The notes under the pieces: model-generated
Seen by the model: the letters and a program-made list of their open reading frames with translations, nothing else
What the model was told of the DNA's origin: nothing
Databases searched by the model: none
Made by a program: the position numbers and the translations under genes
Source: a virus
Strand: one strand, 5' to 3'
DNA: 64,000 bases
Virus record (IMG/VR): IMGVR_UViG_3300006097_000019
Coordinates: 1-64,000 of that record
In this document: positions 3,532 through 51,327 of the stretch, in pieces
Numbering within the stretch: the stretch's first letter is position 1
Layout: every line of letters starts with the position of its first letter

Positions 3532-3810
3532 TTGCTATCAAAAGAAAATTATAAAAGACTACAGAAAATATGCAAAGAGATAAATGAGATAATGCTAGAA
3601 AGTGAATTAAATGAAGTTACAATACAAACACAATACAAAGATTGGCATTATAATGAAAATAAAGGTACTATATGGACTAGAAAATATCATGATGGTGGTA
3701 GCAAAACTATATCTAATCAAATATTTAATAGCGGAACAATTATATTTAGTATAGATAAAAAAGAATATCTTCCAGAATATAAATGGAATTATGAAGAATT
3801 TATAAAATAA
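3532..3810 (+). CDS. hypothetical protein
   Basis: 92-aa ORF with TTG start after aaggtgg SD. Confidence 0.45.
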   Translation: MLSKENYKRLQKICKEINEIMLESELNEVTIQTQYKDWHYNENKGTIWTRKYHDGGSKTISNQIFNSGTIIFSIDKKEYLPEYKWNYEEFIK

Positions 3811-3859: not shown

Positions 3860-4096
3860 ATGGATGTGTTTGAGGTAGTAAAAGAAGTAAAAGAATTATT
3901 AAATAAATTTCCTAATTTTAACAAAGAAGAAATGAAAAAATTAAGATTATTAACTAGAAATTTAAGTTGCGATTTATTTCCTTTCCCTATAGATAATTTT
4001 TTATATGATATGGAAATACAAGAAAAATATGAAAATATATATAATGAAGAATTACCTGGAGATGAAATTATAGAATTTTTAAATAATAAAAAGTAA
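3860..4096 (+). CDS. hypothetical protein
   Basis: 78-aa ORF in the array. Confidence 0.45.
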   Translation: MDVFEVVKEVKELLNKFPNFNKEEMKKLRLLTRNLSCDLFPFPIDNFLYDMEIQEKYENIYNEELPGDEIIEFLNNKK

Positions 4097-4234: not shown

Positions 4235-4441
4235 ATGAAGTATAAAACTAGAGAAATTAAACATTGGGATAATAATAGTGTTTATGTTTATGATTATTTT
4301 ACTGGTCATGAAATAATTATAAAAGGAAGAATTGTTACTGAAATAGTAAATGAAATGAATAAAGAAGGGTTTTATGTTAGTGCTGTATATGAACCAAATA
4401 GCATTAAAGGTATTTGGATAATGACTAAGCAGGTAGAATAA
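4235..4441 (+). CDS. hypothetical protein
   Basis: 68-aa ORF in the array. Confidence 0.45.
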   Translation: MKYKTREIKHWDNNSVYVYDYFTGHEIIIKGRIVTEIVNEMNKEGFYVSAVYEPNSIKGIWIMTKQVE

Positions 4442-4474
4442 AAGAAGTGTTTTATAAAAAGGAAGTGATTATAA

Positions 4475-4720
4475 ATGAATAAACAATTGATGAGCAAATA
4501 TTTAAAACTAAAAGAAGAATTGAAAAAAGTTCGTAATGAAATTATAGAAGAATTAAAAAATAAAGAAGTTGTTATTTATGGAGAATATTGGCAAGGTGTT
4601 CCTATATTTGATTGTGAAATAAAAATAAATGATTATTCTGATATGTTTGAATTAGGTACTAATAATGGTTGTGCTGGTGTTTATCGATTAGAAGAAATTA
4701 TAATAACAAAAGATAGATAA
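4475..4720 (+). CDS. hypothetical protein
   Basis: 81-aa ORF with aaggaag SD. Confidence 0.45.
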   Translation: MNKQLMSKYLKLKEELKKVRNEIIEELKNKEVVIYGEYWQGVPIFDCEIKINDYSDMFELGTNNGCAGVYRLEEIIITKDR

Positions 4721-4750
4721 ATTCATAGTTTTATGTTAGGAGTTAGATAT

Positions 4751-4894
4751 ATGAATAGTAAAAAGTTTTGTAGCCTGTTGGGTTTAGAATGTCCGTATAG
4801 TTTAGACACGCAGATTGTTTTCAGTTATTGTATTAACTGTAATTTTAAATATCTATCAGAAGCATATAAAGAATTAAATTTTTATTACTACTAA
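4751..4894 (+). CDS. small Cys-containing protein (47 aa)
   Basis: ATG after aggag SD; read by eye, below the track cutoff. Confidence 0.3.
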   Translation: MNSKKFCSLLGLECPYSLDTQIVFSYCINCNFKYLSEAYKELNFYYY

Positions 4895-37198: not shown

Positions 37199-37414
37199 TT
37201 GATATACCGAAAGGAGAAAATTATGAACAAGTATATGTCTCAATCAGAAAATGATTTTCAAAATAACTATGCGGAAGGTCAGAATTATAAGTTCAGAAAT
37301 TTGTGCGATACATGTACACAACTAATACCCGAGTGCAATGGCACTAAGATAAAATTTGGGGATGATATTGGCAATGATAATGTAATTGAATGTGATGGCT
37401 ATATAAAATATTAA
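37199..37414 (+). CDS. hypothetical Cys-containing protein
   Basis: 71-aa ORF; an internal ATG at codon 8 is an alternative start. Confidence 0.45.
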   Translation: MIYRKEKIMNKYMSQSENDFQNNYAEGQNYKFRNLCDTCTQLIPECNGTKIKFGDDIGNDNVIECDGYIKY

Positions 37415-37472: not shown

Positions 37473-37628
37473 ATGCTAACTATCCTAAATGGCAAACCAT
37501 TAGAGTTGCCATGTAGTAGTGTAGATAAAACAGTTAGAGAACAATGTATTTATTATTATATGATAGCATGTGATAAACAATGTCCTTGGTATGTATCTAC
37601 CCCCAATTTTACTTGGGGTTTAATGTGA
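37473..37628 (+). CDS. small Cys protein (51 aa)
   Basis: ATG after aaagga; read by eye. Confidence 0.3.
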   Translation: MLTILNGKPLELPCSSVDKTVREQCIYYYMIACDKQCPWYVSTPNFTWGLM

Positions 37629-37773
37629 CAAACACACTAATTCCAAAAATAATAGACAATACAAACAACCAATCAGTAAAAGTTAAAATTAAATTCAGCA
37701 TTTATTAATCAATTCCTTAATAATACTTATGCTGAATAATATAAAATATTACTAAGAAAGGAAGAAAGTTTAA

Positions 37774-38001
37774 ATGAAATTTTATAATAGAGAATTAACT
37801 ATTACAGATATTCATTTTTATAATGATATTAATGATACCGTAGAAATTAGTTATGAATTATCTTTAGAAGGAGATAATATAGCATCTTTACTAGAAGGTA
37901 AATTTAATTTATCTAGAAGTAATTATAATAAAATAAATAATGATTTAGAAAATAATATATTGAAGTTAATTTATAAAGAAAATGAAGTTAAAAATGTGTA
38001 A
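37774..38001 (+). CDS. hypothetical acidic protein
   Basis: 75 aa with aaggaag SD; immediately upstream of the guide-RNA locus. Confidence 0.5.
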   Translation: MKFYNRELTITDIHFYNDINDTVEISYELSLEGDNIASLLEGKFNLSRSNYNKINNDLENNILKLIYKENEVKNV

Positions 38002-38020
38002 TGGAAAATAACATATAAAC

Positions 38021-38221
38021 CCATAGCAGAGGGGTTTATACTCTGCTAAAACATCAGGGCTATTAGGTAGTCCTTAAATCCTAGATGAGTAAACATCTAG
38101 TACCCACAGATTTATTAGGGTAGAGAAGTGCTATTCTTTGAAATAGTAACACTCGATAAGGTAAATAAAAAGTCTGTTTTATTTACCACCTCCCGAAAGG
38201 GGCAATCTATAATTTTTACTG
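38021..38221 (+). ncRNA. tracrRNA-like scaffold RNA for the Cas12f-like effector
   Basis: Non-coding and GC-richer than the flanks. Perfect hairpins: agcagag/ctctgct (38025-38047), ctagatg/catctag (38081-38100), ggtaaataaaa/ttttatttacc (38160-38187) and ccc-GAAA-ggg (38192-38201). The 3' end gcaatctat (38202-38210) is complementary to the repeat segment atagattgt. Confidence 0.5.
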
Positions 38222-38327
38222 TTTAAATAAAGATAATTACTAGTAATAGATTGTAAGTCCACCTTGTTTTCGCTCTTTTTTCTTAAATCCTTTTAAATAA
38301 AAATCATCACTAGTAATGGATTGCAAG
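38222..38327 (+). CRISPR. mini-CRISPR array: two 36-bp repeats and one 34-bp spacer
   Basis: R1 is tttaaataaagataattactagtaatagattgtaag (38222-38257). R2 is tttaaataaaaatcatcactagtaatggattgcaag (38292-38327). They share 31 of 36 positions with a 70-bp period. The repeat 3' end ..ATTGCAAG resembles the type V-F repeat end ..ATGCAAC. Confidence 0.6.
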
Positions 38328-38381
38328 ATGTTGACCTAGCTAAAGCAGAATCACCACACCATAGGAGGGTTATTTAATATA

Positions 38382-39674
38382 ATGAGTAATATAATTAAAA
38401 CAATGTCATACGAAATAATAAAACCAGTTGATTGTGATTGGAATACGTTTGGAAAATTATTAAGAGATTTACAATATGAAACTAGAAAAATTTTAAATAA
38501 ATCAATTAGTTTAGCATGGGAATATGATGATTTTGCATCTGATTATAAAAAAATTTTTGGACAATATCTAAAAACAGAAAACATTTTAAATTACAAGACT
38601 ATATTAGGTTATGTTTATGACAGATTAAAAAGTGAATATTATAAATTGAATACTGGAAACTTTACAGAAACCATAAAAAAAGCAACAGATAAATGGAAAA
38701 ACAATAAAATTGAAGTATGGAAAGGTAATGAAAATATTCCTAGCTTTAAAAACAAAAATTCACCTATTGATGTGGTGAAAAAATCAATCCAAGTAATAAA
38801 AGAAGATAATAATTACTATCTAAATTTAAGTTTAATTTCAACTAAATATAAAAAAGAATTAGATAGAAAATCAGGGCAGTTTTTAGTTCTAATCAAGCCA
38901 GGAGATAAAATACAAAGAGTAATTTTGGAAAGAATAATATCTGGAGAATATGATATTGGTACATCTCAAATAGTACAAAAGAAGAATAAATGGTTTGTAA
39001 ATTTAGTATATAAGTTTCAAAAAGAAAAAACCTCTACTTTAAATCAAGACAACATTATGGGTATTGATTTAGGAATTAAAAAAGCATTATATATGTCATT
39101 TAATAATTCAAGAGATAGATATTATATAGATGGAGGTGAGATAGATGATTTTAGGAAGAAAACAGAAAAAAGAAGAAATGAATATTTAAGACAGGGAAAA
39201 TATTGTGCTGATGGAAGAATTGGTCATGGTAGAGAAACTAGAATTAAACCTATACAAAAACTTCAAAATAAGGTTGAGAATTTTAAAAATACTACTAATC
39301 ATAAGTATAGTAGGTATGTAATAGAAATAGCATTAAAGTATAATTGTAAGACAATACAAATGGAAAAATTAGAAGGAATAAATAAAAATAGTGTATTTTT
39401 AAAAAATTGGACTTATTATGATTTACAACAAAAAATTGAATATAAAGCAAGAGAATGTGGTATTGAAATAAAATATATTAATCCAAAATACACTTCTCAG
39501 AGATGTTCAAAATGTGGATATATACATAGTGATAATAGAGAAAATCAAGAGACATTCCATTGTAAGAGTTGTGGATTTAAAACTAATGCTGATTATAATG
39601 CTTCTCAAAATATTGCAACTAAAGATATTGAAGAAATTATTGAAAATACATTAGAAGAATTAAAAGCATCATAA
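38382..39674 (+). CDS. cas12f: Cas12f-like (type V-F) miniature RNA-guided nuclease
   Basis: RuvC-I IMGIDLG (D229), RuvC-II TIQMEKLE (E328), Zn ribbon CSKCG..CKSCG, RuvC-III NADYNASQNIA (D404). From memory it is collinear end to end with AsCas12f1 (422 aa). Confidence 0.8.
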   Translation: MSNIIKTMSYEIIKPVDCDWNTFGKLLRDLQYETRKILNKSISLAWEYDDFASDYKKIFGQYLKTENILNYKTILGYVYDRLKSEYYKLNTGNFTETIKKATDKWKNNKIEVWKGNENIPSFKNKNSPIDVVKKSIQVIKEDNNYYLNLSLISTKYKKELDRKSGQFLVLIKPGDKIQRVILERIISGEYDIGTSQIVQKKNKWFVNLVYKFQKEKTSTLNQDNIMGIDLGIKKALYMSFNNSRDRYYIDGGEIDDFRKKTEKRRNEYLRQGKYCADGRIGHGRETRIKPIQKLQNKVENFKNTTNHKYSRYVIEIALKYNCKTIQMEKLEGINKNSVFLKNWTYYDLQQKIEYKARECGIEIKYINPKYTSQRCSKCGYIHSDNRENQETFHCKSCGFKTNADYNASQNIATKDIEEIIENTLEELKAS

Positions 39675-39888
39675 TTTTAGAAAAGGAGTTTTGAAAAAAT
39701 GTTTAGAGATAAAATTAAAAGTCAAACAGTTTAAATATACCTAAAGTGTTAAAAAACACATTACTGGAAAATGAAGAAGAAAAACACCAAAAAATTTTAA
39801 ATGATTTTCAAAAAGAATTAGATAAACACAAAGAACTAATAAATACTAAAATAGAAAAACAATAAAAATCAAATTTTATCTTAGTGCG

Positions 39889-39909
39889 TTAAACACAAAA
39901 TAATACTTA
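39889..39909 (+). promoter_or_regulatory. recurrent intergenic motif (putative phage promoter)
   Basis: ttaaacacaaaataatactta just upstream of the ggagg SD of the 39911 ORF. Confidence 0.5.
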
Positions 39910-39910
39910 A

Positions 39911-40189
39911 ATGGAGGTAATTATGAGTATTTATACTACTGAAATTGAAAATTTATATGAGGTTAGCTTACTTCCGTATATCAATGATGAGTTTGCCGAT
40001 GAAAGAGTTGTGAATGTTGAATTAATTTCTGAAGATACAAGAAAAGAATTATTAGATGAATTGTTCAGTAAATTAAGAAATGATAAAAGATTAACGCAAG
40101 ATGAAGATGGGAATTTTCTTTGCAGACAAAAAGATTTATGTGATGTTGAGGGGGATTATGGCATAAGGTTAGTAGAAATGGAGTGGTAA
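39911..40189 (+). CDS. hypothetical acidic protein
   Basis: 92-aa ORF. Confidence 0.5.
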   Translation: MEVIMSIYTTEIENLYEVSLLPYINDEFADERVVNVELISEDTRKELLDELFSKLRNDKRLTQDEDGNFLCRQKDLCDVEGDYGIRLVEMEW

Positions 40190-40190
40190 T

Positions 40191-40715
40191 TTGAATTACA
40201 TACTTGGAATTGATCAAGCAACAAGTAAATCAGGATTTGTTGTAATGGATGGAGATTATAAAATTATTGAATATGGTATCATTGACACTACTAATATAGG
40301 AGATACCACTGAATACGGTCATACATTAAAAAGGCAGGAATTAAAGAAAAATATAAAAATGTTACTAGAAAAATATCCTAAAATAATTCAAGTAATATGT
40401 GAAGGAGTTCATCTTAATACTTTTAAAGGTATAGCACAAAAAAACGGAGTTGAAATCTTCAAAAAATTATCAAAAACTCAAGGGACGATTGAAGACATAT
40501 GTTTAGAATTAGAAATATCTTGCTTTACTTTTAATGTTAATTCATGGAGAAGTTATATAGATTATAAATTTGGAAGAAGTAGAGAAGAAATTAAAGATAA
40601 TACTAAAGCATATATAATAGGAAGATATAATTTGCCAGATAATCTTGAGCAAGATATATATGATGCCACAGCAATCTGCGAAGGTTATCTAAATATGATT
40701 AATAAATTCAGTTGA
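40191..40715 (+). CDS. ruvC: RuvC-like Holliday junction resolvase
   Basis: N-terminal YILGIDQATSKSGFVVMD (RuvC ILGIDPG-like, catalytic D) and C-terminal DIYDATAICEGY; TTG start. Confidence 0.7.
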   Translation: MNYILGIDQATSKSGFVVMDGDYKIIEYGIIDTTNIGDTTEYGHTLKRQELKKNIKMLLEKYPKIIQVICEGVHLNTFKGIAQKNGVEIFKKLSKTQGTIEDICLELEISCFTFNVNSWRSYIDYKFGRSREEIKDNTKAYIIGRYNLPDNLEQDIYDATAICEGYLNMINKFS

Positions 40716-40743
40716 TTATGAATAGAATGTATTGGGTGATGTT

Positions 40744-40881
40744 ATGAAAAAATTTGAAAATGAATTAGATTACAGTTTTAGCTTTTGTATTTTAAAAGAT
40801 TTATTAGAAGAAAAATATATTACAGAAAGTCAATTTAAAAAAGCAGTCAATAAAATAAAAGAACTATATTTAACTACCTAA
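40744..40881 (+). CDS. hypothetical small protein (45 aa)
   Basis: ATG after gggtgatg; ends inside the terminator stem. Confidence 0.35.
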   Translation: MKKFENELDYSFSFCILKDLLEEKYITESQFKKAVNKIKELYLTT

Positions 40882-40900
40882 AAAATAGGTAGTTTTCTTT
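40872..40900 (+). terminator. Rho-independent terminator
   Basis: Stem aactaccta (40872-40880) / taggtagtt (40886-40894) followed by TTCTTTT. Confidence 0.65.
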
Positions 40901-40962
40901 TAAAATAACCATATTGGTGATATAATATTTTTAACAATAAGGATATTGAAGGAGGACAAGCA

Positions 40963-42615
40963 ATGAAAGAAAGGGTTGTTGCTTATGCTAGAGTTTCGAC
41001 AGACCATGATGACCAATTAAACTCTTTAGAAAACCAAAAACAACATTGGGAAGAATATATTAAATCTAATCCTGAGTGGGAATATTGTGGATTATATTGG
41101 GATGATGAATCTGGTACTAGCACAATTAAAAGAGATGGTTTTAATAAAATGATTGAAGATGCAGAAAACGGTGAATTTGATTTAATAATTACTAAACAAG
41201 CAACCAGGTGGGCAAGAAATGTAGTTGATGCTTTGCAGTATACAAGAAGATTAAAAACAAAAGGGGTTGGTGTTCTTTTTCATGCCGACAATATTCACAC
41301 TATTAAAGATGCTGATGCTGAATTAAGATTATCAATAATGGCAACTTTAGCACAAGAAGACAGTAGAAGAATTTCTGAAAATGTTAAATTTGGACATTTG
41401 AGAGCAATGAAAAATGGAGTTGTGTATGGTGGAAATAGATTATTAGGTTATGATATTAAAAATAAAAAATTATATATAAATGAAAAAGAAGCAGTAATAA
41501 TAAGAGATATTTTCAATTGGTTTGTTTATGAAAAAGAAAGTTTGCATGGTATAGTTAGAAAATTACGAGATAAAGGAATTACAAAAGGGAAAACTGGAGG
41601 AAAAATAGATCACACTACAATAAAAAGAATCTTAGAAAATGAAAAATATTGTGGTGACCTTAAACAAAGAAAATATTATACAGAAGATTTTTTAAATCAA
41701 AAACAAAAACAAAACAATGGAGAAATTGAATTTATTATAATTAAGAATAACCATGAACCTATTATTAATAGAGAAACATGGAATACAGCACAAGAAATTT
41801 TAAAGCAAAGAAGAGTAGAAAGTAAAAGAGGAAATGGATATACAAAACATTGTTGGGGAGGTAAAATAATTTGTCCTGAATGTGGAAATAAATTTAGAAG
41901 AAAAGTTTTAAAAAACAAAGATGGTACTGATAGACCAATTTGGATATGTATTAATTATCATAATAATGGTAAAAAAGGATGTGAAAATTCAAGTTATTTA
42001 AGAGAAGATGTGTTAAACGATACTTTTCAAGTTGTAATTAAAAAACTTAAACAAAAATCAAATCAAGATAGAATTATTAAGAATTTAAATAATATACTAG
42101 GCGAATTGCTTGAAAAAGACAATTCTAATGAAAAAATAGAAAAAATTAATAAATCTATTAATAAAATAAAAAACAAAAGAGAAAAATTGTTAGAACTATA
42201 TATGGAAAGCAATTTAACAAAAGAAGTTTTTACTGAAAAAAATGATAAATTAAACATGGAAGAAGAAAATTTATTAAATAAGAAAAATATGATAGAACAA
42301 GCCAAAAATAAATTAGAAAATCAAAAACAAGATATATTAGATTTGTATGAAGTGATAAAAAATAAACCAGACAACTTAAAAAATATTGATGATTTTGTAA
42401 ACAGACATATTAAAGAAATAATTAAACACAAAGATAAACTTTCGTTTGTATTAAAAACGGGAGAAAAAATAGATGCAGATTTATCTAAATATCCAAAAAG
42501 GATTTGTAGTAGAGATTACATCACTATAATGGATATTAAGGTTTTGCAATTAATTAATAGAGGGGCAGTACAATATTACGAAGAAATAGGTGTGGAAGTA
42601 TTACTTGTAGCATAA
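40963..42615 (+). CDS. large serine recombinase (phage integrase type)
   Basis: Resolvase catalytic domain VVAYARVSTDHDDQLNSLENQ (Ser12), recombinase domain, Zn ribbon CPECGN..CINYH..C, and a long coiled-coil. Confidence 0.9.
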   Translation: MKERVVAYARVSTDHDDQLNSLENQKQHWEEYIKSNPEWEYCGLYWDDESGTSTIKRDGFNKMIEDAENGEFDLIITKQATRWARNVVDALQYTRRLKTKGVGVLFHADNIHTIKDADAELRLSIMATLAQEDSRRISENVKFGHLRAMKNGVVYGGNRLLGYDIKNKKLYINEKEAVIIRDIFNWFVYEKESLHGIVRKLRDKGITKGKTGGKIDHTTIKRILENEKYCGDLKQRKYYTEDFLNQKQKQNNGEIEFIIIKNNHEPIINRETWNTAQEILKQRRVESKRGNGYTKHCWGGKIICPECGNKFRRKVLKNKDGTDRPIWICINYHNNGKKGCENSSYLREDVLNDTFQVVIKKLKQKSNQDRIIKNLNNILGELLEKDNSNEKIEKINKSINKIKNKREKLLELYMESNLTKEVFTEKNDKLNMEEENLLNKKNMIEQAKNKLENQKQDILDLYEVIKNKPDNLKNIDDFVNRHIKEIIKHKDKLSFVLKTGEKIDADLSKYPKRICSRDYITIMDIKVLQLINRGAVQYYEEIGVEVLLVA

Positions 42616-48671: not shown

Positions 48672-48684
48672 TTTTTTATCCTCC

Positions 48685-51327
48685 TTACAATCCTCTATTA
48701 GTAAATTGTTGTTCTACCCATCCTCTAGTTGCGACTAAGTTGTCTGTAATTGCAGAAAGTCCAATAAATACATCGCCATCTAAAAAAATATCATCATTGC
48801 AACTTATAGTTATATCATAACCATTGCTTTCGATATAAGCAGACGAATCATTTCTTATATTAAAATCACTACAATTATAAACATTAAAACCACTGTTAGC
48901 ACAATTAATATTCAATCCTGTTCCAGCACCAACATGTGACAATTCAGTATGTACAAATCTTATTAGACTGGTTTCAAAATCTATACTATATGCACCAGTT
49001 AAATATGTTGAACCACCAACAGAACCTAACTCAACCCCATCAGACCATTTTCCTAAATAATCAGCATTTATTTTTACTTGGTTATCTATAGTTTGTAAAA
49101 TATCAGTGCCATCTAATATTAATTCGTTACAAATTATCTTACCTTCAATAGTTAAATTGCCACTTGTATCAGCATATAATTTTTTACTAGTCCAACCATC
49201 ATTAGTTGTATTTCTAACACCTATAGTTATACCTTCTGTAGCATTTAACATAGTAGTTATTCCATTATCGCCACTAACAGTAATTCCATTAGTTGTATCA
49301 ATTTTTACACCATTGTATAAAGTATTTTTCTGAATAGAATTATTCCATTTATTAACTGATGTAGAATTGATTTGGCTTTCAGGCAATCCATTTGTAATTG
49401 TTAATGAAGCACCTGCAATAGTAACTCCATTACCATCAACAGAAAAAGAACCACTGTCATTAACAATGGTTAAATTATTACCTGCAATTATTTCACCTAT
49501 TAATTTTTCAGCATATACTCCTGAACTATCAATCGCTACGCCAAAAGTATTTCCTCCATCTTGTGTTAAACCAATAACTCCATTCGTCATTCTTATATAT
49601 TTCAAAGGATCGGCACTGTTTGATATCGTAACTCCACGTTCATTAACTGTTACACTATTATTTACACCTGAAATTATTTCTCTTTTAGCACTATCCCATG
49701 TATTATTTAAAATAGTAGAAACTTCATTACTTGTGCTAAATGCTGTTTGCCATTTAAACTTATTCATATCAACAATAGAAGAAGTGGATATCACATTATA
49801 AAATTCTTTCAAAAAATCATCATCGTCAGTTTTTATATCTTTTGTATTTGCAATAGTCAAATTAATATCTGCATTTTCAAAATTATAATATATTTCAATT
49901 ATTTTAGTAGAAATATTTATGTTTAATTTGTCATATTGGACATTTATAATGTCTCCTAATTGTAATTTATCCCAATTTAATTGTTCTTCAATTATTTCTA
50001 AAAAATTCACAATATCTAATTCAAATATAATTTGTGGTTCACGTATATCTTGAAATGTTTCAATAGCTTTATTATATAATTCTTTATCATCATAAATATT
50101 TTCATTAGACCATTCTTTTTCAATAATAAACTGATTTCTTTCAACTATTTGTTCAGGTGTAAAATTATTTTCTATAGATATTTCATTTTGTAATGTAGTT
50201 ATTTGACTATCGATATTAGAAATATCATTTTCAACTGAAGTAATTTCAGATTCTTTATTTGCTATTTCATTTTCTTTATTTTGTAAATCAATCTTTAATT
50301 GTTCTTCATCCCCTACACCTGTTGATTGAGCAATGTCTAAATTATCTTGTATTACTGCCAATTCAGTTTCTAAAGTAGATAATTCATTTTCTTTAGTTGT
50401 TAAAGTATTTTGTAAAGTTTCTTTTTGTGTGAGTAAAGCATCAAAATCACCTTTTTTTGTTTCTAACAAATCATTGTAGACAATAATTGCTTTACATAAT
50501 CCATCGGACATATAATCTGAATGTTTTATGATATTTCCATCTACATCTTCTTCATAAGGATGTATGAAATAAGTAAAATCTTCAATATAATTAGTGCCAG
50601 TAGGATTAACACGTTGAATACTTAATTCATCCTTACCAAAAACTTTTAATCTAGTAACCATTTCATCGACACTAGATATTTTATTTAAAGATTTTAGATA
50701 TTTTCCATAGTTGATTTTAAATCCTCTATCAATCCCCACATTATCAGATTTATAAAAACTAATAGTACGATTAAGAGTATCCCATACTACTAAAGCATTA
50801 AATGTTTCTGCAATTTGATAAACAAAATCTAATAATGTAGCATTAGATACATTAAATGAGCGATACATAATATCAAAATCTGCATCAATATAATCAATAG
50901 TCCATATACTTGAAGATAATACTTCAGTTAATACTTGTGTGGCATTATAAGAGGTAACACTATAATCTCTAATTAATTTATCCCGCAATTCATAACCAAG
51001 GCTAAAAGTATGAACTTCTTTATTATCGTTATCTTCATTCATATTGTCTATTAATTCATTTATAATGAACCATTCAGTATAATTTCCTAAAACTAATTTA
51101 ATTAAATACCGTTCTTTGAGTTTATTGATATTATCATTAAATTTTAATTCATGATTTATTTCAATTTCATAAGGCAAGGAAAAAGACAGCTCATTGAGCT
51201 GTCTTAAACTTAATTTTAAATTTATATCAAAACTTTCATTTAATTTACCAATTATTTCTTTATTTGGTTTACACAAAAATAACTGTGGTTTTTGAGGTTT
51301 TAAATTTAAATCAATATCTAAAAACAA
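48685..51327 (-). CDS. tail-associated lysin-like / baseplate hub protein (Tal)
   Basis: 880 aa immediately after Dit; central coiled-coil; position typical of the siphophage Tal / prophage tail endopeptidase family. Confidence 0.55.
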   Translation of the reverse strand: MFLDIDLNLKPQKPQLFLCKPNKEIIGKLNESFDINLKLSLRQLNELSFSLPYEIEINHELKFNDNINKLKERYLIKLVLGNYTEWFIINELIDNMNEDNDNKEVHTFSLGYELRDKLIRDYSVTSYNATQVLTEVLSSSIWTIDYIDADFDIMYRSFNVSNATLLDFVYQIAETFNALVVWDTLNRTISFYKSDNVGIDRGFKINYGKYLKSLNKISSVDEMVTRLKVFGKDELSIQRVNPTGTNYIEDFTYFIHPYEEDVDGNIIKHSDYMSDGLCKAIIVYNDLLETKKGDFDALLTQKETLQNTLTTKENELSTLETELAVIQDNLDIAQSTGVGDEEQLKIDLQNKENEIANKESEITSVENDISNIDSQITTLQNEISIENNFTPEQIVERNQFIIEKEWSNENIYDDKELYNKAIETFQDIREPQIIFELDIVNFLEIIEEQLNWDKLQLGDIINVQYDKLNINISTKIIEIYYNFENADINLTIANTKDIKTDDDDFLKEFYNVISTSSIVDMNKFKWQTAFSTSNEVSTILNNTWDSAKREIISGVNNSVTVNERGVTISNSADPLKYIRMTNGVIGLTQDGGNTFGVAIDSSGVYAEKLIGEIIAGNNLTIVNDSGSFSVDGNGVTIAGASLTITNGLPESQINSTSVNKWNNSIQKNTLYNGVKIDTTNGITVSGDNGITTMLNATEGITIGVRNTTNDGWTSKKLYADTSGNLTIEGKIICNELILDGTDILQTIDNQVKINADYLGKWSDGVELGSVGGSTYLTGAYSIDFETSLIRFVHTELSHVGAGTGLNINCANSGFNVYNCSDFNIRNDSSAYIESNGYDITISCNDDIFLDGDVFIGLSAITDNLVATRGWVEQQFTNRGL

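Follow-up and report, generated by a model that had tools for sequence, protein, structure and literature searches.

The stretch of DNA analysed here (the window, 64,000 nucleotides long, positions 1 to 64,000 of IMG/VR virus record IMGVR_UViG_3300006097_000019) is a tailed-phage genome of about 26% GC, with genes for a tape measure protein, a minor tail protein, ribonucleotide reductase, a DnaB-like helicase, a primase, the alpha subunit of DNA polymerase III and an integrase. On its plus strand it carries, in this order, a structured RNA scaffold (38052-38221), a small CRISPR array (38222-38327) and a gene for the nuclease Cas12f1 (38382-39674), that is, a feature of a known kind: a type V-F1 trans-activating CRISPR RNA (tracrRNA), a mini-array and cas12f1 on a phage. 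Scaffold and array occupy a gap between an open reading frame (ORF) of 75 aa (37774-38001, here orf75) and the 430-aa ORF of the nuclease, in which the longest ORF does not exceed 32 aa. Our subject is the junction of scaffold and array, since the tracrRNA anti-repeat ends one base before the first repeat, an arrangement in which a preliminary description of the sequence had seen a natural single-guide RNA (sgRNA). The features are the following.

37625 to 37653, plus strand: candidate promoter GTGACA-17-AATAAT, weak and inferred from a consensus scan (10 of 12 positions match)
38024 to 38048, plus strand: 8-bp hairpin (38024-38031 with 38041-38048), from sequence reading and RNAfold, outside the family model
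38056 to 38074, plus strand: stem 1, 7 bp including G-U pairs, with loop TTAGG at 38063-38067 (alignments)
38081 to 38122, plus strand: 42-nt insertion of two hairpins inside the 5' strand of helix 2 (alignments)
38123 to 38157, plus strand: stem 2, GAGAAGTGCTATT...AATAGTAACACTC (nhmmer match and core of the covariance model match)
38160 to 38187, plus strand: stem 3, a perfect 11-bp hairpin (38160-38170 with 38177-38187; RNAfold, alignment, covariance model)
38192 to 38201, plus strand: stem 4, CCC-GAAA-GGG (38192-38194 with 38199-38201; RNAfold, alignment, covariance model)
38203 to 38220, plus strand: long anti-repeat, made of caatctat, a 5-nt bulge and ttact (exact complementarity to the repeat)
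38222 to 38257, plus strand: repeat 1 (R1), TTTAAATAAAGATAATTACTAGTAATAGATTGTAAG, 36 nt (repeat comparison)
38258 to 38291, plus strand: spacer 1, 34 nt, between R1 and R2
38292 to 38327, plus strand: repeat 2 (R2), 36 nt, 86% identical to R1, able to pair with the anti-repeat over 9 bp including one G-U
38328 to 38361, plus strand: terminal spacer-like segment without a closing repeat, continuing into the ribosome-binding site (RBS) of cas12f (sequence)
38382 to 39674, plus strand: cas12f1, 430 aa (PDB, Pfam and NCBIfam matches; invariant columns)

The nuclease gene is intact. The closest PDB structures to its product are all of AsCas12f1 (8J12, 8J3R, 8J1J, 8DZJ and 7WJU), matched over the whole length with E-values of about 1e-133 to 1e-134, and the identity with the protein of the native As locus is 48%. 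The protein matches Pfam Cas12f1-like_TNB and NCBIfam guided_TnpB (191 bits) and reaches 53 bits against the IS200/IS605 TnpB model, whose cut-off is 425; judged by these scores, it is far nearer to Cas12f1 than to that model. The RuvC residues D229, E328 and D404 and the four zinc-finger cysteines (CCCC) are kept, and are invariant in an alignment of 20 sequences. More than 1100 homologues were found at E <=1e-30, the nearest (61% identical) belonging to the group labelled L001, and a lookup of the exact protein gave no contig on record. For the comparisons below 246 related loci were retrieved, plus 8 for the closest proteins (labels L001, L014 and so on).

Homology of the scaffold to the AsCas12f1 tracrRNA

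The reference for the scaffold is the native locus of AsCas12f1 (Acidibacillus sulfuroxidans / Sulfoacidibacillus thermotolerans Y002; our L014), where cas12f1 is followed by the tracrRNA (from 4117, ATTCGTCGGTTCAGCGACGA...), a leader of about 135 nt and an array of 19 repeats GTTTGCGAGCTAGCTTGTGGAGTGTGAAC, whereas in the window the tracrRNA lies upstream of the gene, without a leader and next to two degenerate repeats. Numbered from its first base, the L014 tracrRNA agrees with the base triples published for the AsCas12f1 sgRNA (bioRxiv 10.1101/2023.07.03.547593), for example G29-A31-C65 and G74-A90-C107. In an alignment of 33 tracrRNAs, stems 1 to 4 of the window and the motif CACTCGATAAGGTA fall in register with As, in the order stem 1, linker TAAATC, stem 2, junction CGATAAGGTA (38154-38163), stem 3, stem 4 and anti-repeat. 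In both systems the scaffold is on the strand of gene and array, the repeat stands 5' of the spacer and the anti-repeat follows stem 4; the repeats end in ...TTGYAAG in the window and in ...GTGTGAAC in As.

The family structure was evaluated on 22 tracrRNAs, window and L001 excluded, with a five-helix structure that was derived by hand and supplied. It pairs 89% of the alignment cells (32-41% in slid controls) and gives a covariation score of 0.59, against about 0.1 in controls, with 147 cells changed on both sides and none of 500 shuffles reaching the score; family helix 4, which is stem 3 of the window, covaries. Since MAFFT had misaligned the variable stems, RNAalifold recovered no others than stems 1 and 4 from its raw alignment. 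A covariance model from which window and L001 were left out has a single match in the 64 kb, both strands included, at 38110-38215 on the plus strand (25 bits, E = 1.8e-5), and an nhmmer profile made with the same exclusions likewise has a single one, at 38123-38164 (E = 1.9e-5). In the relatives the covariance model finds 103 matches, every one on the cas12f strand, upstream or downstream of the gene, and several related loci hold two to four tracrRNA copies. Rfam returned nothing for the whole window at the gathering threshold, nor for 37900-38450 at E <=1, but this silence is uninformative, since the true As tracrRNA is likewise unmatched.

All five family helices form in the window. Helix 2 is closed by the pairing of 38078-38080 and 38123-38125 with 38152-38157, and the insertion in its 5' strand consists of a 7-bp hairpin (38081-38087/38094-38100) and a 5-bp one (38101-38105/38118-38122); when it is removed, the family consensus, TAAATC followed directly by GAGAAGTG, is restored. 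Only the window and the L001 group, its closest relative, have this insertion, with compensatory changes between them in the first hairpin and a differing sequence of the same shape in the second. The 11-bp stem 3, in which the GGUA bases are paired as well, whereas in relatives they stay free for base triples, and the 3-bp, GAAA-capped stem 4 further distinguish the window from As. In relatives stem 4 has 6-7 bp, a conserved ACAAARACC loop and UGAAA before it; the window has neither the loop nor the UGAAA, both of which join base triples in AsCas12f1 (bioRxiv 10.1101/2023.07.03.547593). The multi-stem scaffold of type V-F1 (stem 1, stem 2, CUCGRUAAGGUA junction, stems 3 and 4) is thus present, with an atypical stem 4 and UGAAA junction, and it stands beside cas12f1 and an array on the same strand. 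To judge from alignment, profile and covariance model, 38052-38221 is a divergent homologue of the AsCas12f1-type (type V-F1) tracrRNA.

What had been called "tracrRNA-like" in the preliminary description is therefore strengthened. The hairpins listed there all exist, that at 38024-38048 with 8 bp instead of 7, but stem 1 and stem 2 had been missed, and 38024-38048 lies outside the family scaffold. This hairpin has a competitor (38015-38022 pairing with 38032-38039), and in the downstream tracrRNA of L001, where stem 1 begins about 19 nt past the cas12f stop codon, there is no room for anything like it. Covariation in homologous loci, proposed there as a check, is found for the five-helix family structure; the hairpins of 38081-38122 have counterparts only in the L001 group. 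As a whole, the 291 nt from 38002 to 38292 fold on the plus strand at -74.5 kcal/mol (z = -3.9), a value that none of 200 shuffles attained; on the minus strand z = -2.5.

The abutting layout and its recurrence

The anti-repeat is complementary to the 3' half of the repeat, as had been claimed from the sequence for the last 20 nt before R1 (38202-38221): caatctat (38203-38210) is perfectly complementary to atagattg (38246-38253), and ttact (38216-38220) pairs with agtaa (38242-38246), which makes 8 + 5 = 13 bp at -9.0 kcal/mol (RNAduplex). It comes directly after stem 4, as in the As tracrRNA and 33 aligned relatives, and it does abut R1, which begins at 38222. Folded with RNAfold, this RNA contains the duplex with R1 in cis in both the minimum free energy (MFE) and the centroid structure. 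The 3' end of R1 (...GATTGTAAG) resembles the repeat ends of relatives (...GTTGCAAG, ...AATGTAAG).

R1 and R2 start 70 nt apart and make up a CRISPR array, in the sense of repeats of constant length with unique spacers of similar length, at the bare minimum: two repeats and no closing repeat. At <=3 mismatches the window holds no third copy except two poor matches. An 18-nt repeat-like match, CTAATAGAGGATTGTAAG, lies at 48684-48701 on the minus strand, with 3 mismatches to the 3' half of the repeat; it falls where the minor-tail-protein ORF (48685-51327) has its stop codon, and probably arose by chance.

Over its first 22 nt spacer 1 is identical to part of a methyltransferase-like ORF, present in six phage contigs of IMG/VR that belong to one lineage (L255-L260, 11-36 kb; in L258, for example, at 3996-4017 inside a 159-aa ORF), and a composition-matched reversed control had 0 matches in IMG/VR. 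On sequence grounds this suggests inter-phage targeting. For the terminal segment, "spacer 2", neither IMG/VR nor the rest of the window gave a match, and the RBS of cas12f (aggagg, about 38363) comes directly after it. That the last repeat of a small array continues into the RBS and start of the next gene is seen in the window (38328-38381) and also in L001 (2944-2997 and 4761-4806), L094 (about 3580-3650) and L250 (about 3560-3600). The terminal "guide" of such arrays is the 5' untranslated region (UTR) or start of the next gene, and it might target related phages without the insertion.

Relatives fall into two classes by how far the end of stem 4 lies from the part of the repeat with which the anti-repeat can pair. 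This spacing is bimodal, 45-65 nt in about 20 copies and 117-225 nt in the others, the classes being assigned by the printed arrays, as an automated search for 8-nt repeat partners was noisy. The short class includes the window (51 nt), L089, L091, L092, L093, L094, L096, L016, L025, L010, L187, L101, L191, L173 and L102, and the long class As, L001, L008, L088, L018, L167, L168, L178, L248, L250, L251 and L253, with leaders of 120-240 nt. Short-class units have 14-41 nt between stem 4 and the first repeat (20 nt in the window), which comes immediately past the anti-repeat, and the cis fold, stem 4 followed by an anti-repeat:repeat hairpin, is the MFE structure in 13 of 14 units. As modelled, this fold is connected in the way of engineered Cas12f sgRNAs. 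The leaders of the long class have promoter-like elements (TTGATA-17-TATAAT in L001, found by eye), for which there is no room in short-class units.

Two elements are conserved in long-class leaders between the anti-repeat and the first repeat, a hairpin GTCGTCGA...TCGACGAC and a (G)RTTCGCAC motif; they are seen, for instance, in L014 (4258-4300), L007, L008, L018, L087, L088, L247, L250, L251, L253, L167, L168, L110 and L195, and the window has neither.

In L010 (three times), L094b, L250b and L195 just one repeat-like segment, with a fixed guide, comes after the tracrRNA. In L010 (Alicyclobacillus macrosporangiidus DSM 17980) the tracrRNAs at 936-1110, 2652-2830 and 4287-4460 are each continued at once by one repeat-like segment (…GTGTTGTGGGG) and then by unique sequence, two of the three without a further repeat within 420 nt; from their sequences these units look like fixed natural single guides. 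In L096 (6042-6119) a partial scaffold, comprising stem 4 and the first part of the anti-repeat, continues directly as the 3' end of a repeat (catct-gca-agatgtaag), and resembles an sgRNA with a truncated duplex or a product of recombination between anti-repeat and repeat.

The natural single-guide architecture proposed at the outset stands, then, as anatomy and as a predicted cis fold, and it belongs to a recurrent class; abutment is not unique to the window. The placement of the RNA 5' of the gene had also been noted correctly, though tracrRNA and array upstream of cas12f are common among relatives. In a limited literature search we found no description of nuclease-active AsCas12f1-like loci with the tracrRNA contiguous to the first repeat, and the layout is recurrent but apparently undescribed.

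One guide RNA or two

The reading that we favour, with a confidence only slightly above even, is that of a one-transcript cassette in which the anti-repeat pairs in cis with R1 and so makes an sgRNA-like guide. Transcription would start at the candidate promoter (37625-37653), or arrive by read-through out of earlier phage genes, and give a single RNA comprising orf75, the scaffold, R1, spacer 1, R2, the spacer-like 5' UTR and cas12f. The promoter is the sole consensus-like one upstream of orf75, scaffold, array and cas12f, a terminator-like hairpin (37601-37618) lies just 5' of it, and no promoter or terminator consensus was found between scaffold, array and cas12f1. In this RNA the anti-repeat would pair with 38242-38253 of R1, and the result, scaffold, anti-repeat:repeat hairpin and spacer 1, would be connected as in an engineered Cas12f sgRNA. 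A Cas12f dimer would then bind the cassette RNA, the guide would be shortened at its 3' end by host RNases, and for R2 and its spacer another scaffold would have to act in trans.

In engineered Cas12f sgRNAs, likewise, the repeat is attached by its 5' side to the anti-repeat 3' end, and the guide comes last (PMC8548392; bioRxiv 10.1101/2023.07.03.547593). Their join is a tetraloop, whereas that of the window is natural, with a 21-nt loop that includes the 5' 20 nt of the repeat and with the 5-nt bulge; moreover, unlike an engineered sgRNA, the window RNA would have a second repeat-spacer unit and an mRNA downstream on the same predicted transcript.

A "natural single-guide RNA" of Cas9 (type II), with scaffold and guide in one molecule, was reportedly described by Workman et al. 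in 2021, namely the long-form tracrRNA (tracr-L) of S. pyogenes, which is said to be a repressor of the cas promoter and not to be joined to an array repeat. Closer to Cas12f, the dCas12f-sigmaE systems use a single chimeric scaffold-guide RNA, and their authors propose that a dual guide has "collapsed again" (PMC12259090). Those proteins are nuclease-dead transcription activators with guides of 14-16 nt and no tracrRNA-like species (PMC12259090), whereas in the window the catalytic residues are kept and the RNA is recognisably a tracrRNA plus a repeat.

Contiguity in the DNA is, however, no proof of a single mature RNA, since the AsCas12f1 ribonucleoprotein contains a separate 169-nt tracrRNA and CRISPR RNAs of 40-50 nt (PMC8548392); this is the first of several points that weigh against the one-transcript guide. 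The window could be an ordinary dual-RNA system, tightly packed, in which RNase III or another host RNase cuts near the duplex and abutment reflects nothing but the economy of a phage genome, a possibility that we take seriously even if we think it rather unlikely. The same scaffold family works with long leaders and multi-repeat arrays, and R2 must be served in trans anyway. Markedly weaker duplexes in the short class, which would be expected if it depended on cis pairing, were not found, the means being nearly equal (-16.5 kcal/mol against -18.8 in the long class). Yet in short-class units the repeat follows stem 4 too closely to leave room for a promoter; a cis fold of the contiguous RNA is predicted for 13 of the 14 units folded; and the tracrRNA copies with a single repeat (the three of L010, L094b and L250b) make a trans mechanism of little point.

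The other points against the one-transcript guide concern the window locus itself. Its scaffold is the lowest-scoring clear member of the family under the covariance model (25 bits, against 70-118 for most others), while L001 copies with the same insertion still reach 71-81 bits; much of this low score is explained by the reduced stem 4. Of 29 anti-repeat:repeat duplexes, its own and that of L089 are jointly the weakest. R1 and R2 differ at 5 of 36 positions, the 5' flank of the spacer-1 match is ATACCG, unlike the T-rich protospacer-adjacent motif of AsCas12f1, and promoter-like sites are no commoner in the window than in shuffles, which leaves 37625-37653 a weak promoter candidate. The last point is the pseudoknot. 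A short repeat:anti-repeat pseudoknot helix is reported to be crucial for targeting by AsCas12f1 (PMC11246509), and we could locate it in the family: positions 2-5 of the stem-1 loop (38063-38067 in the window) form pairs with the final four repeat bases, as in As (GTTCA:TGAAC, 5 bp), L001 (TTCG:CGAA), L089 (CTTG:CAAG), L091 (CTCG:CGAG), L096 (CTCA:TGAG) and L253 (CTTA:TAAG). At least 4 Watson-Crick pairs form in 30 of 34 cognate combinations, against 4.4% of 1038 non-cognate ones. The window, with a loop ATTAGG and repeats ending in GTAAG (R1) and GCAAG (R2), has 3 bp with R1 and 2 bp with R2, below the 4-7 bp of type V-F1. Relatives with its repeat end have the loop ACTTAA, and compared with the ACTTAG or ACTTAA loops of relatives that of the window looks as though one C had gone. 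From its sequence, we take this weak pseudoknot to be the chief ground for doubting full activity of the locus.

Another candidate for the short anti-repeat, CCTTAAATCC (38072-38081), was rejected, as relatives conserve this linker independently of how their repeats end. In L001 (a contig of JGI 3300034685) three modules of tracrRNA, leader and three repeats (2493-2980, 4292-4800 and 5611 to about 6100) surround one cas12f, one upstream of it and two downstream, with slightly different repeat variants; the stem-1 loops of modules 1 and 2 fit their own repeat ends (4 bp), that of module 3 only by 2 bp.

The same deviations could mean that the locus is decaying or has been repurposed, a remnant or a device for binding and regulation instead of interference. 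To the pseudoknot, the reduced stem 4 with its lost UGAAA junction, the divergent repeats and the weak duplex one may add that the terminal "spacer" is cas12f 5' UTR, and that no adaptation gene was recognised by Pfam in the five ORFs tested around the cassette, cas12f included. Against decay we set the full-length cas12f ORF with all its catalytic and zinc-finger residues, the five helices that still form, and a spacer 1 with a plausible phage target; engineered AsCas12f sgRNAs are also said to tolerate truncation of stems 3-5. On these grounds we consider decay improbable. In the reading that we favour, the one-transcript guide would be active in spite of its weakened pseudoknot.

Surroundings and origin of the cassette

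The small ORFs flanking the cassette (37774-38001, 39911-40189 and 40191-40715) have no homologue in any of about 250 related loci. By gene content, therefore, the unit of tracrRNA, array and cas12f is found among phage genes that are unrelated from case to case, in the manner of a mobile cassette. With blastn against GenBank phages there was only one short coding match, at 70% identity. A perfect 18-nt inverted repeat, GCACTAAGATAAAATTTG, at 37341-37358 and 39870-39887, the only perfect one between 36 and 42 kb, flanks a 2.5-kb segment with orf75, scaffold, mini-array and cas12f, the similarity of its arms ending at the 18 nt; it may be a boundary of the cassette, a recombination site or a product of chance. 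A gene for a large serine recombinase of 550 aa lies at 40963-42615.

A more far-reaching proposal of the preliminary description was that the locus could be an intermediate on the way from the omega-RNA of TnpB to separate tracrRNA and CRISPR RNA, which would make it a surviving "unsplit" form. There is some logic in it: TnpB omega-RNAs (or reRNAs) and TranC guides also consist of a scaffold and then a 3' guide, next to a nuclease of the TnpB/Cas12 family of about 400-430 aa, the topology of scaffold, terminal hairpin and guide is that of an omega-RNA, and a published model derives type V guides from a split transposon right-end RNA (bioRxiv 10.64898/2026.03.27.714800; PMC12259090). In a neighbour-joining (NJ) tree, admittedly rough and without support values, the abutting layout dominates the deep branches, most of which belong to the short class. 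In the same tree, however, the protein of the window lies inside a crown clade with L001, L248, L250, L251 and L253, all of which have leaders, and the abutment in the window may have been retained or have arisen when a leader was secondarily lost. Nor is the position that of an omega-RNA, which overlaps the 3' end of tnpB at the right end of the transposon and has one fixed guide: the window RNA lies 160-330 nt upstream of the start codon, does not overlap the 3' end of the gene and is organised in repeat-spacer units, the second repeat included, and the covariance model has no scaffold match in the 200 nt downstream of cas12f1. No Y1-type or small serine TnpA was noticed near the cassette, the Pfam scan being limited to ORFs from 37774 to 42615, and the IS200/IS605 or IS607 context (TnpA, element ends) was not seen, although element ends were not specifically searched for. 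Finally, the insertion, the shrunken stem 4 and the weakened pseudoknot are lineage-specific changes, and the scaffold therefore looks derived rather than primitive. The proposal is thus not borne out for the window, and we hold it to be very improbable there.

For the family as a whole the idea fares somewhat better, though we still find it doubtful, that much of the AsCas12f1-like family, the window locus among it, makes and uses the tracrRNA and the first repeat-spacer unit as one RNA, a natural sgRNA, as an ancestral "unsplit" state to which leaders and long arrays were added later.

Should the window RNA be processed into two pieces, the locus would be an ordinary, though unusually compact, divergent and phage-borne, member of type V-F1. 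If instead the contiguous molecule of tracrRNA, repeat and guide is the one at work, the sgRNA design of the Cas12f engineers already exists in nature, in compact phage cassettes of about 1.6 kb with guide and nuclease on one transcript. The "RNA splitting" origin of type V guides would then become directly testable, by comparing the short and long classes within one protein family, and such cassettes would offer naturally minimised scaffolds, for example with a 3-bp GAAA-capped stem 4, for miniature genome editors.

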